A DNA stretch of 64,000 bases, taken from the NCBI GenBank assembly GCA_036630325.1, contig CP142730.1:62001-126000 (forward strand), in the 5' to 3' direction. A program made the position numbers and the translations under genes. Positions within the stretch are counted from its first letter, which is position 1; every line of letters starts with the position of its first letter. Below the pieces are notes generated by a model. That model saw only the letters and a program-made list of their open reading frames with translations, made no database searches and was not told the origin of the DNA. Below, one piece after another: positions 47,074 to 57,534 of the stretch. The stretch is from Vairimorpha necatrix (taxonomy: Eukaryota).

Positions 47074-49365
47074 TTAAATTAATTTAATTAAATATTCATC
47101 TCCTGATATTTCTTTAATATCATAAGCTTTCTCTTCGTTGACTACTTTTTTAATGTACCTGTCGCCATCATACAAATTAAAAACTTTTATAATTTCTTTG
47201 AGTTTTACACATTTTTTCCCGTCTTTTTTCAGATACAAATCCACTTTCTTAAGGAAGACTGAGTTGTCTTCTTTCTTGGCTTTAGAAATGAATTCTTCTT
47301 TCCTTGCCTTTTCCTTCTCTTTTAGTCTTTGTAGGATACTTGAGTATTTATTGTTATTAGTATTGTTCTTATCTGTCTTATTGATCTTATTATCTTTGTC
47401 GCTGTTCTTAGCGTCTTTTACATTTTTTATATCTTTCTTTACATCTTTTTTTATATCTTTCTTTACATCTTTCTTAGCGTCTTTTACATTTTTAATCTTA
47501 GTATCTTTCTTTATATCTTTTTTTATATCTTTCTTTTTATCTTTCTTTGTATCTTCGTTCTCAAATATTCTTAGTCTTTCTATGTCTTCTATATCTTCGT
47601 CGACTTTGTTTACTCTCTTTTTTCTACTATCTCGTTTATCTTTTTTCTCATAATATCCTCGTATTTTCTTCTCAAATTCCTCGTTACTACATTTTATTTT
47701 ATAAGTAAATGTTTTCTTCTCTTCTATCTCTACTATCTTTATTATTATGTCTTCTGGTATAAGATATCTTATTCTTTCTATATCTGAGATATCTAGTCTT
47801 ATTTTTAATATATCTTCTATAGACTTCTTACACTTGCTGAATATGTTTGATAGGCCTCTGTTCTCATTGTATTTCTGTATAGTGGTCATGACTCTGAAGA
47901 TTCTGCTTAGTCTTAAATATTTCTTAGGTAAAAGACAATGAGGCAAGTCTACTGAGACAGAAGAGGCCCTGATGGGCAAGAAAGACAAGACAGTGTCTCT
48001 TAGAGGGAGAGTAAATTTGCCTTTACTTGTAAGTTTGCTTGTCTTGATTTTATTGTCTTTGCTTGTAACTTTGCTTGTCTTGATTTTATATTCTTTGATT
48101 GTCTTAATTTGACTTATAACTTTGCTTGTCTTGATTTTATTATCTTTAATTTGACTTGTAACTTTGACTGGACTGGAGCTATGGCAGTCTGGTGGCCAAA
48201 AATCCCTTAAAAGGAATTTTTAAAAAAATCACCCCAAAAATGAAAAGTCAAGAGGAAAAACTTTTTGAAATTTTTAAAATATATTGAAAAAACAAGCAAA
48301 TCATGTATAAAATGTGGTTCTATAAGAAAAAAATATTATGAAAATGTTATTTTTCGATGTACTTGGTCTAAATGTAGAAGTAAATGGTCTTTATTAAAAA
48401 AAACTCCATTCTACAATAACAAGCTTGGAATTAATACTATGTTATTAATTATTAAATCAAGGTCTGTTAATGTAAAGTATAAAGCTATTGCGGAATTTCT
48501 TGGAATTACCATTAAAAGTGTAAGAAAAATCATTTCTTTAACAGTAAATTCCATCGAAAATTCTGTTTACGTTGAAACAGGTATAAATGGAGGACCTGGG
48601 ATTGTTGTGGAAATAGATGAAAGTAAGTTTGGTAAATTAAAATACCATAGAGGCCATGGGTAGAAGGAGTTTGGATTTTCGGAATGGTAGAAAGAACACC
48701 TCAAAGGAAAATTGTGTTTGTTCCTGTTGATAATAGAAGAGCAACTACACTAGAAGAACTTTTAAAAAAAATATGTTCACCCAGAATCTATCATACATAG
48801 TGATTGCTTCTCTTCATATTCTATGTTGTGTTCAATTTTTCAACAACATAAGACGGTTAATCATTCAAAAGAATTTGTTAATAAAAATAAATATGCCATA
48901 CTAATACTATCGAAGGTAATTGGAGCGCTGTTAAAAGTGAAACTTCCATAAGGCATAGAACAAAAAAATTAATAAAGAGTTCTTTGTTAAGATTTATGCT
49001 TAGAAGAAATTTTGAAGGGAATTTGTTTGATAAAATTATTAAAATGATTTTTAAGTTTTTATTTTTTTCATCTTGACTTTTCATTTTTGGGGTGATTTTT
49101 TTAAAAATTCCTTTTAAGGGATTTTTGGCCACCAGATTGCCCTTTAACCGACTGGACTTGTAACTTTGCTATCATCGGCTTGACTGTCTTTGACTGGACT
49201 TATAACTTTGCTATCATCGGCTTGACTGTCTTTGACTGGACTTATAACTTTGCTTTTTTTATTGTTCTCTACTTTCTTAAGTGTTATTTCACTACTTAAG
49301 TCACTTTCTTTTACCAAACTGGCTCGTCTTTTTTTCCTTATAAATTTGTGAATATCTTCGTTCAT
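47074..49365 (-). CDS. CDT1: DNA replication licensing factor Cdt1-like (435 aa reconstructed), interrupted by a Merlin transposon
   Basis: Joining 49365-49150 to 48165-47074 gives one open frame. LLPKKYLRLSRIFRVMTTI...IFSKCKKSIED..IERIRYLIPE resembles the Cdt1 central domain, followed by SILQRLKEKE. Confidence 0.78.
48175..49149 (+). mobile_element. Merlin (IS1595-family) DNA transposon, 975 bp, frameshifted transposase
   Basis: About 79-bp near-perfect inverted repeats (48183-48261, 49063-49141) inside GG...CC termini. 9-bp TSD GACTGGACT at 48166-48174 and 49150-49158. Motifs GGPGIVVEIDESKFGK, WIFGMVER, IIHSD, VNHS, HTNTIEGNWS. Confidence 0.94.
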
Positions 49366-49459: not shown

Positions 49460-49966
49460 TTATATAAATTTCCTTCTTTCTTCCATATGCTTCACTAATA
49501 TCTCTTTGATCTCATACCACTCAAATAATGTCAAATTATTCAAACTTAACGCTCTCCCTTCCATTTTACCAAGTCCACTTAGCGTCTTCTTAAATCTCGT
49601 CTCTTTTAATTTATCTATCAATCCTATACACTCTTCTTTCTTTTCGCAATTATAACTGTGTCTTATTATTAATTTCCCTGTACTAAATATATTACTCGGT
49701 ATATTAATATATTCCCTCTGGTTACTGATCTCATCTTCTAAAAGCTTACTAAGATACTCAAAGGAATAAACAAGAGGAAGTCTGATTTGTACTAGGCCGC
49801 TTTTTTTTAATTCTAGTGCTATAAATAACGGTAAATTAATAATAGAAAGTGGGTTGAGATCAGAATAAGACTGGTGGATGAGAGACAAAGAAGGAATAAA
49901 AGATGTGGGCTCGACTTCTAACAACTCCTCAGTGGAAATGAACTTCAACTCTTGAGGAGACAACAT
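49460..49966 (-). CDS. PSF2: GINS complex subunit Psf2
   Basis: Motifs MLSPQELKFI..E, LPLFIALELKK, RFKK, LNNLTLFE. Confidence 0.9.
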   Translation of the reverse strand: MLSPQELKFISTEELLEVEPTSFIPSLSLIHQSYSDLNPLSIINLPLFIALELKKSGLVQIRLPLVYSFEYLSKLLEDEISNQREYINIPSNIFSTGKLIIRHSYNCEKKEECIGLIDKLKETRFKKTLSGLGKMEGRALSLNNLTLFEWYEIKEILVKHMEERRKFI

Positions 49967-50519
49967 TTTAAAAAAGGGATTAATAATATGAACTAGATAT
50001 AAAAACTTTAAACTAGATATTTACATTATGGAACAAAATCAAAAATTAAAGCGCAACATACTAATAAAAAAATATATGTAATCGATATAAAGGCATGTAA
50101 AATATCAATATTATTACTGTCATGTAATATATCAACAATAAAACTAATAATAAAGACATGTATTAGATCAATAGTAAAGACATGTAATACATAATTTTAA
50201 GACATCTCGTAAAAAACTAAAGACTTTTAATACCCACCTAGTAAAGATCCTAAGATCAATGGTTAAATACAAATTTATATATTAAATTTACAAATAAATA
50301 TTTTTTTGATTAAAATATAAAACATACTACTAGTACCTAATTATAAAACATACTACTAGTACCTTATTATAAAACATACTACTAGTACCTTATTATTAGA
50401 TATGAAACATATAGAAATAAAAGTAGTAAAAAAATCTTCTTGATTTTTTTTTATCATTTTTCTGTAACTAAGTCTCATATACAAATATTTAAACACTTAT
50501 TAAAAAAACAAATAAAAAT

Positions 50520-55509: not shown

Positions 55510-55547
55510 GTGGGGTTTAAAATGTTTTTTTTTCAATAATACAGGGG

Positions 55548-55743
55548 TTTGAATCATTATAGTGCCATGTTTGAATTTCTATATTCCCATGTTTGAATTT
55601 CTATAGTGCCATGTTTGAATTTCTATAGTGCCATGTTTGAATTTCTATAGTGCCATGTTTGAATTTCTATATTCCCATTTTGAATTTCTATAGTGCCATG
55701 TTTGAATTTCTATAGTGCCATGTTTGAATTTCTATAGTGCCAT
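55548..55743 (+). repeat. Left TIR array: 9 x 22-bp TTTGAATTTCTATA(GTG/TTC)CCATG
   Basis: Head-to-tail units with no spacers. Confidence 0.92.
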
Positions 55744-55770
55744 AAAAATTTGAATTTTTTGTGCCCCTTA

Positions 55771-56757
55771 ATGGTTAGAAAAGAAAGAAAAACCATAACT
55801 ACTGAATTAAGAAACATAGTTTTGGAGTTATCGAAAGATGAAAAACGATCCATTGCCGAAATATCGAGGATGGTTGATTTACATCGTAAAACCGTTGCAT
55901 CTATTATAAGAAGACAGCACAATCAATCCGTTGGCCCTCTTCCGCAGTTGGGCGAAAGCGAAATACTTTCAAACACAGAGCGTGTTATAAAAAACATAGT
56001 TGATTGTGCTAATGATATGACTTTACAAGAAATTTCATCCGAGTTATATACACGAACAGGAGTAAATTTGACCATATCTTCAATATCGAAAAAACTAAAA
56101 AAACTCGGTATAACAAGAAAAAGACTTTCACTAATTCCTGTTGAACGTAATTCGTTGGACAAGTTAAATAAAAGGAGTATCTATGCAGCTGAAATTAGTA
56201 GGTACTCTGTTGAAAACCTAGTTTTCCTTGATGAAACTGGGTTCAACGCCCATACGACCCGTAGTTACGGATACTCAGAGAAAAACACTAAAGCCTATAA
56301 GAATGTGCCAGCAAATCGAGGCCAAAATATCAGCTGCATGTGCGTAATTACTATAAATGGATTATTGGCATATGAGTTCAAACGTGGAGCGTATAACTCT
56401 GAGAGTTTTATGAACTTTGTAGAGAATAAATTGTCTATGTTCTTTAGGAATTATCCTGGTAAAGTTCTAATTATGGATAATGCTAGTTTTCATCATTCGC
56501 GGGAAGTTTTACAAAAATTAAACAGTCTAGGCATCAATCATAAATTCCTGCCTCCTTATTCTCCACAATTAAATCCCATCGAAGAATTCTTTTCGATGCT
56601 CAAGGCAAGGTTTTCATCTTTTCGTAATACAGAAAGTCAAATTGAAACAAGGATTGAAAATGTTTTGAGTTTAAATTATAGCCGTGAGTGTCCTGGATTT
56701 TATAGAAATATGATGGAGTGGCTTGAAAAGGCAAGAGCAAGAGAAGACTTTATTTAA
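55771..56757 (+). CDS. DD34E transposase (328 aa, intact)
   Basis: N-terminal HTH, then VFLDETGF, LIMDNASFH and LPPYSPQLNPIE with 34 residues between the second D and the E. ATG follows CCCC. Confidence 0.95.
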   Translation: MVRKERKTITTELRNIVLELSKDEKRSIAEISRMVDLHRKTVASIIRRQHNQSVGPLPQLGESEILSNTERVIKNIVDCANDMTLQEISSELYTRTGVNLTISSISKKLKKLGITRKRLSLIPVERNSLDKLNKRSIYAAEISRYSVENLVFLDETGFNAHTTRSYGYSEKNTKAYKNVPANRGQNISCMCVITINGLLAYEFKRGAYNSESFMNFVENKLSMFFRNYPGKVLIMDNASFHHSREVLQKLNSLGINHKFLPPYSPQLNPIEEFFSMLKARFSSFRNTESQIETRIENVLSLNYSRECPGFYRNMMEWLEKARAREDFI

Positions 56758-56792
56758 TAAACTTTTTTATTTATTTTTAATTTCATCTTTTT

Positions 56793-56945
56793 ATGGCACT
56801 ATAGAAATTCAAACATGGCACTATAGAAATTCAAACATGGGAATATAGAAATTCAAACATGGCACTATAGAAATTCAAACATGGGAATATAGAAATTCAA
56901 ACATGGGAATTTAGAAATTCAAACATGGGAATATAGAAATTCAAA
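56793..56945 (-). repeat. Right TIR array: 7 inverted copies of the same 22-bp unit
   Basis: ATGG(CAC/GAA)TATAGAAATTCAAAC repeated. Confidence 0.92.
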
Positions 56946-57534
56946 ACCCTGTAAAAAAAAAATGAAAACAAATAAAAACATTTAGTAAATATTGAATGAC
57001 GTAGTACAAATTTAAGAAATGTATTTGATAAATTGATGAATGTAAAATTTTTATATTTTCAATAATGATTGAATTAATATGAAACGAGGAATGTAAACGA
57101 ATTATCTAATAGAGAAGGCTTTACTAGTGTATCGTATGTAAAATAAGATAATTAATTTGTAGAATATTTTTCAATAAACAATTTGTAGAATATTTTTCAA
57201 TTATTTAGTATATAATTGCAATCACTTAGTAGAATATTTTTTAAGCATTTAGTATATATTTTCAATTATTTAGAAGATATTTATCGGGATTGAAAAATCA
57301 AATAAATTTTTTTCATTAAAAAATAGATCTTTTTTTTATCTCGTCAAATTTTTTTTGATTTTAGAAAATCATCATATTTTGCTTGTAAATCTCTGTTTTA
57401 ATTTTCTGCGTATTATAAATATTCAAGAGCTTAAAAATCTTATGTTCAGATAATTTAAGTTAATTTATTTGTAACACAGATATTTTTATGAGTCAAGTTC
57501 TGTCTTAGTTTAACATTAAGAATTTAACGTATAA

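Follow-up and report, generated by a model that had tools for sequence, protein, structure and literature searches.

How does a eukaryotic parasite live with a replication-licensing gene that has been cut in two? Cdt1 loads MCM2-7 and is reported to be essential in yeast and animals (PMC5538431); by analogy, it would be essential in microsporidia as well. In the Vairimorpha necatrix assembly analyzed here (G000), the reading frame of CDT1 is interrupted by a DNA transposon at positions 47074 to 49365 of the window, i.e., the whole 64,000-nucleotide stretch under analysis. Among the articles listed by a literature search for Cdt1 in microsporidia, no report of this locus was found, and PMC10759460, which deals with V. 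necatrix, does not use the word cdt1 in its main text. The questions are what was inserted and when, what the interrupted gene encodes, whether a protein can still be made from the interrupted copy, and which other alleles might compensate.

A Merlin element inside CDT1

CDT1 lies on the minus strand. Its 5′ part (49150..49365) starts with an ATG at 49365 and runs for 72 codons without an internal stop, encoding a PIP-box-like motif (residues 2-13) followed by 42-bp tandem repeats that specify SPVK. The 3′ part (47074..48165) comprises 363 codons plus a stop, again with no internal stop, and encodes the rest of a disordered linker and two winged-helix-like domains with a K/D-rich repeat between them. 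The two parts are separated by a 975-bp element (48175-49149, plus strand, i.e., in the orientation opposite to CDT1) that begins with GG and ends with CC. An exact 9-bp target-site duplication, GACTGGACT, stands on both sides of it, at 48166-48174 (left copy) and 49150-49158 (right copy). The first-pass annotation had described a CDT1 gene split by a Merlin transposon, and the exact ends, the duplication, and the in-frame halves bear this out: removal of the element and one copy of the duplication restores a single open frame of 72 + 363 codons with no other lesion. With the element in place, the frame closes after 73 codons at a TAA on the minus strand (49146-49144), at the very position given in that annotation.

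The premature stop is supplied by the right terminal inverted repeat (TIR; 49064..49149, minus strand), which also holds a mirror ATG at 49084 whose frame extends for 68 codons. The left TIR (48175..48260, plus strand, about 86 bp) carries a CCCC signal and the ATG of the transposase at 48240. The two ends differ at 7 of their first 86 positions, and their core arms of 78 nt are 97% complementary. Measured against the open-frame copy L009, the transposase itself (48240..49073, plus strand) is a pseudogene whose frame is shifted near 48270, 48657, 48763, and 48892. A CCCC is also found within the 30 nt upstream of the native CDT1 ATG. The tandem repeats of CDT1 occupy 47393-47579 and 48017-49294, with periods of 12 and 42 bp, and their length differs in the sequencing runs X1 and X2 discussed below.

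The Merlin superfamily (IS1016/IS1595-related) is defined by TIRs of 24-462 bp starting with 5′-GG, an 8- or 9-bp target duplication, and an IS1595-type DDE domain (PMC8101967), and it is already known in Nosema and other microsporidia (PMC4202319). The element in CDT1 resembles these in its 5′-GG termini, its TIRs of ~86 bp, and its 9-bp duplication, and its family carries a DDE_Tnp_IS1595 (PF12762) transposase, as seen on L009. That copy, about 96% identical to the one in CDT1, has a 314-codon transposase frame that scores 55.7 bits against a cut-off of 27, and the assignment to Merlin thus stands. Unlike an autonomous Merlin, the CDT1 copy has four frameshifts in its transposase; one of its four transposase fragments matches PF12762, with 22.4 bits, which is below the cut-off.

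At least 23 copies of the element are present in the assembly at 94% identity or above. Among the 20 two-ended copies, the 9-bp duplication is perfect in 13, has one mismatch in one, measures 10 bp in one, and is missing in five. Because the family is this numerous and 13 of the 20 show a perfect duplication at the same termini, the arrangement in CDT1 is not a chance one. Judged by divergence between copies, the insertion is recent: the CDT1 copy differs from L003 by five substitutions and from L002 by six, and four substitutions are private to it when it is compared with 20 other copies. All four coding frameshifts recur in L002, L003, L004, and L008 (four of the 20 other copies aligned). 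Since they are common to four other loci, the frameshifts are inherited lesions of a non-autonomous subfamily that has spread in trans. Of the two explanations offered in the first-pass annotation, mobilization in trans is thus the one upheld, while homopolymer sequencing errors are ruled out by the same four loci.

The CDT1 copy is the only one of 20 with a stop-free frame of at least 100 codons touching its junction, a pattern to be anticipated if insertions into coding sequence are mostly removed by selection. When the element is skipped in silico, L009 and L020 cross candidate frames of 117 and 122 codons, respectively.

Several further observations concern the Merlin copies of the assembly. 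The L009 transposase (L009:1503-2444) has an N-terminal CxxC…CxxxxC cluster with no zinc-finger match in Pfam; described Merlins are reported to lack the IS1595 zinc finger (PMC8101967), and the cluster is a difference from them. A second Merlin family (L025-L030) is about 70% alike and has other TIRs; L025 and L026 have open frames of more than 300 codons. Three pairs of copies (L019/L021, L017/L022, and L003/L023) have flanks in common at separate loci, and L019, L021, and L017 have no target duplication, suggesting that segments were duplicated or that copies exchanged sequence. At L023/L024 (G000:C7:205299-206797), a Merlin copy is broken by about 520 bp of other sequence.

CDT1 is surrounded by housekeeping genes that have no introns: PSF2 immediately upstream, a diphthamide gene on the downstream side, and a VTC gene farther out. 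PSF2, which belongs to GINS (49460-49966), lies on the same strand less than 100 bp upstream of CDT1, which places two replication genes side by side. In the interval that separates PSF2 from the VTC gene, three 26-bp tandem copies occupy 50316-50403, and one X1 contig is 28 letters shorter there. Elsewhere in the window, a Tc1/mariner-type element (55525-56962) has an open DDE_3 frame of 328 codons (55771-56757) and long TIRs composed of 22-bp tandem repeats. Frames for LTR-retrotransposon reverse transcriptase, RNase H, and integrase are found at 9718-11760, 14217-15341, and 29467-31520 and are mutually about 66% alike.

Identity of the gene and of its severed N-terminus

On profile and predicted-structure evidence, the interrupted gene is Cdt1. 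The Pfam family PF08839 matches at 33.1 bits in the genome search, above its cut-off of 22.6; the whole proteins score 21.8 (the 3′ part as a protein) and 21.0, just below it. A profile search found 55 family members, of which 40 were scanned with PF08839; 31 of these match and 22 do so above the cut-off. When a 50-sequence profile was compared with PDB sequences, the four best of six matches were Cdt1, with E values from 7.5e-9 to 8.7e-5. The first 12 Foldseek matches listed for the predicted model are all Cdt1-containing entries, two of them at E < 0.001, and entries for the C-terminal domain match weakly (E about 0.25). The earlier assignment, which had been open to a check by HMM, is thereby confirmed, with the PDB-profile and fold searches in agreement.

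The predicted model has two confident domains (about residues 151-250 and 338-433) that follow a disordered stretch holding the insertion site, where pLDDT is below 50. In having two winged-helix-like domains behind a disordered N-terminus, the protein resembles known Cdt1 (PF08839/PF16679; human 8s0e, 2wvr, and 8rwv; mouse 2zxx; yeast 5me9), and its N-terminus likewise opens with a PIP-box-like motif that is followed, four residues on, by a basic residue. In contrast to the known Cdt1 structures, the V. necatrix protein is very divergent, with a structural identity of 9-20% in the top matches, and its SPVK and K/D-rich repeats are lineage-specific. The assembly holds a single match for each half of CDT1 and one PF08839 match above the cut-off. 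No second CDT1 was found there by searches with each half and with PF08839, in which the best candidates were scored. No relative turned up in a metagenome scan, which yielded 263 pattern matches.

The SPVK repeats had been put forward as CDK-like regulatory sites, yet they do not behave as a conserved element: S/T-P-x-K/R occurs within the first 130 residues of 3 of 54 homologues and is absent in the two closest. The conserved N-terminal element severed by the insertion is, by sequence comparison, the PIP-box-like motif instead. The core pattern of a PIP box is hydrophobic-x-x-aromatic-aromatic/hydrophobic; a PIP degron, which acts through PCNA binding and CRL4-Cdt2-dependent destruction, combines it with a basic residue at +4. 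Such a core lies within the first 20 residues, with the basic residue at +4, in 24 of 55 proteins versus 7 of 1053 other windows, and shuffled sequences give a mean of 0.9 and a maximum of 5 in 500 trials; the pattern used is a relaxed one, and the sequences are related, so these counts are not independent. The strict PIP degron needs TD at positions 5-6 (PMC8871960). Unlike this degron, the public V. necatrix protein has HK in place of TD and no Q at position 1, and, the TD being absent, the motif is called no more than PIP-box-like. No shorter protein form of the N-terminal 200 residues was found among 989 candidates.

Can the filled allele still yield Cdt1?

A public protein record from V. 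necatrix (P0001, locus tag VNE69_05017, 433 aa) matches both halves of CDT1 and would, at first sight, represent an intact gene. It is not an empty allele. Letter for letter, it equals the window minus 990 nt, from a GT at 49157, in the right copy of the target duplication, to an AG ending at 48168, in the left copy. The record is therefore the filled locus read with a GT-AG "intron" whose ends fall inside the two duplications, and it falls two residues short of the form obtained by simply restoring the empty site.

Were this removal to take place in the cell, with the TIR stem bridging the ends, the element would be spliced out of the CDT1 pre-mRNA and the 433-aa protein would be made. The exact reproduction of P0001 favors such splicing, as does the predicted RNA fold, in which the TIRs pair in one long stem that would draw the ends together; moreover, the cut falls in the stretch of low pLDDT. 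Sites in target duplications can be recruited by introns of transposon origin (PMC11282704), and RNA-seq counts of 44,352 are reported for VNE69_05017, with alleles not separated (PMC10759460), so the locus is transcribed. However, 29 in-frame GT/GC-AG pairs exist around the junctions, and that of P0001, being one of them, is not special. Its donor reads GTCCAG; on the minus strand of 48175-49365, neither GTAAGT nor GTATGT occurs, these donor words being a general consensus rather than one derived from this genome. No branch-like word lies closer than 182 nt to the acceptor, and the element's final 86 nt are locked in the predicted stem. A scan of the assembly with a native-intron pattern returned 604 plus 959 matches versus 1072 plus 514 for the control and so did not set introns apart from background. 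The length of 990 nt also stands against 24-76 nt for the microsporidian introns cited here: in Encephalitozoon (E.) cuniculi, a 76-nt intron counts as "long", and short introns are spliced at below 20% (PMC6349667), while seven ribosomal-protein introns are reported for V. necatrix, the shortest being 24 nt (PMC10759460). Splicing of the element is, on this balance, very unlikely. Given the GTCCAG donor, the distant branch-like word, the tiny known introns, and the prediction of V. necatrix genes with BRAKER/Augustus on a soft-masked genome (PMC10759460), the 990-nt "intron" of the public record is probably a gene-prediction artefact.

The arrangement has a parallel in introners, as described in PMC11282704 and PMC12130899, in that a TIR element has splice dinucleotides in its target duplication and is an intron in the public model. 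Unlike introners, the CDT1 element has weak splice signals at both donor and branch, and a long frame is touched by just one of the 20 copies. The word "Merlin" is absent from the main text of both articles, and "microsporidia" is absent from that of PMC12130899.

Alternatively, the 3′ part might be expressed by itself from a promoter in the element, as the first-pass annotation had proposed, which would give a Cdt1 that lacks its N-terminus. The coding sequence of the two folded domains lies wholly 3′ of the insertion, the minus-strand frame into the 3′ part is free of stops from 48219, inside the left TIR, through to its end, and the right TIR offers a CCCC signal and an ATG in the direction of CDT1. 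That ATG does not help, since the frame it opens ends after 68 codons, well before CDT1 is reached. In the frame open from 48219, there is no ATG before 47889, which corresponds to Met163 of P0001 and lies inside a helix (residues 151-173) of the first winged-helix domain in the predicted model; unlike the native CDT1 start, it has no CCC or GGG in the 30 nt upstream. Because translation would begin within the first winged-helix domain, expression of the 3′ part is highly improbable, and the proposal is not borne out. The filled allele, then, presumably yields no full protein.

Element-free alleles and ploidy

Four sequencing runs (X1-X4) were compared as contigs, of which those of X3 and X4 cover next to none of the stretch; contig depth is no measure of copy number, and differences in X1 between the depths of element and gene were left out. 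In one X1 contig, position 48150 is followed directly by 49180; the 1029 nt skipped equal the element, one duplication, and 45 nt of repeat. The resulting element-free form is in frame, with 420 codons and no stop. The joint is found in just this contig, its shorter side has 36 letters, the likeness is 85%, and it lies in a repeat region prone to false joints. Each side of it fits the other half of CDT1 at 24-25 of 36 letters without gaps (gapped fits come closer), which makes a misplaced repeat less likely. An X2 contig of depth 2.5 loses its fit to the window at 48156, the place where the X1 form diverges as well, with 18 letters of the contig remaining. In X2, the element also continues into the sequence that flanks copy L016, and X2 is close to the assembly for this reason. 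X1 has only non-window letters at the places listed and may therefore be another strain. X1 is thus evidence for the existence of an empty allele but does not place it in one cell with the filled one, and an element-free, in-frame allele in closely related DNA is documented in part. The filled junction, i.e., the element joined to CDT1, was not seen among the X1-X4 contig matches listed; on these listed matches, the filled allele is supported by the assembly and by P0001.

Among the places listed, X1 and X2 have in common eight CDT1 letters that differ from the window (47713-47728 and 48012-48014). Relative to the filled allele, these change four residues and leave three codons silent, and they are too few for a test of relaxed selection.

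V. necatrix is reported to be tetraploid and diplokaryotic, with four pseudo-haplotypes that are 96% alike (PMC10759460), and tetraploidy is reported to be common in the group (bioRxiv 10.1101/2025.05.12.652816). The assembly, with 15.0 Mb in 12 contigs and one CDT1, would correspond to a single chromosome set. The locus is probably best explained by a young null allele of CDT1 on one haplotype that is masked by element-free alleles on the others. It is hypothesized that a non-autonomous Merlin copy, mobilized by the transposase of another copy, inserted recently into the part of CDT1 that encodes the disordered, repeat-bearing N-terminus, on the haplotype represented by the assembly. The filled allele would then give no more than an N-terminal stub of 73 residues that lacks the winged-helix domains and would be null, and the parasite would survive because CDT1 is free of the element on its other chromosome sets. 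Filled and empty alleles would thus be expected in the same cell. Buffering by other haplotypes, one of the options raised in the first-pass annotation, becomes the likeliest reading in view of the in-frame empty form in X1 and the reported tetraploidy (PMC10759460). Exon insertions usually inactivate the gene (PMC11282704). The present case resembles recessive insertion alleles masked by ploidy in that a recent insertion into coding sequence brings a premature stop, in a species for which tetraploidy is reported. Masking of recessive transposon-insertion alleles by ploidy is general knowledge. In a literature search of sources lying mostly outside subscription journals, no case of an essential-gene insertion in a tetraploid microsporidian was found among the articles listed.

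The same observations can be read in other ways. The insertion could be real but transient, being confined to a spore sub-lineage or to one nucleus in some cells and phased into the sequence by the assembler. A family that looks recently active, with five to six substitutions between copies, would fit this, as would the missing filled junction among the X1 and X2 matches listed and the presence there, at two of the four private positions as listed, of the common letter only. Four private substitutions suggest some residence time, even if a few could be consensus errors, and contigs drop rare variants, so absence from X1 and X2 proves nothing; a transient insertion is accordingly unlikely. Fixation on all haplotypes, with Cdt1 dispensable or replaced in the lineage, would agree with the failure to find a second CDT1 in the assembly, but both halves are free of stops and frameshifts, 55 family members exist, and X1 has the in-frame empty form, which leaves this reading extremely improbable. 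Finally, the site lies within tandem repeats and none of the X1-X4 contigs listed bridges the filled junction, as would be seen if misassembly had put a repeat copy inside the gene; exact termini, a perfect 9-bp duplication of host sequence, and four private letters are so unlike a collapse or mis-join that this origin is scarcely credible.

A sheltered null allele is, in its parts, an ordinary event in a useful place, as both the element and the masking are of known kinds. The filled CDT1 would mark a recessive, probably lethal allele that microsporidian polyploidy shelters, and counts of filled versus empty alleles would bear on whether ploidy masks transposon damage and how fast recombination removes it. 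The locus is also a warning for annotation, in that a predictor can disguise an insertion as an intron such that an essential gene is reported intact. As a by-product, the analysis points to a conserved PIP-box-like N-terminus in microsporidian Cdt1. If the splice were true after all, the reduced microsporidian spliceosome would have gained a transposon-derived intron that rescues an essential gene, more than 10 times longer than the known microsporidian ones cited (PMC10759460, PMC6349667), and this would be a striking intron gain in an intron-poor lineage.
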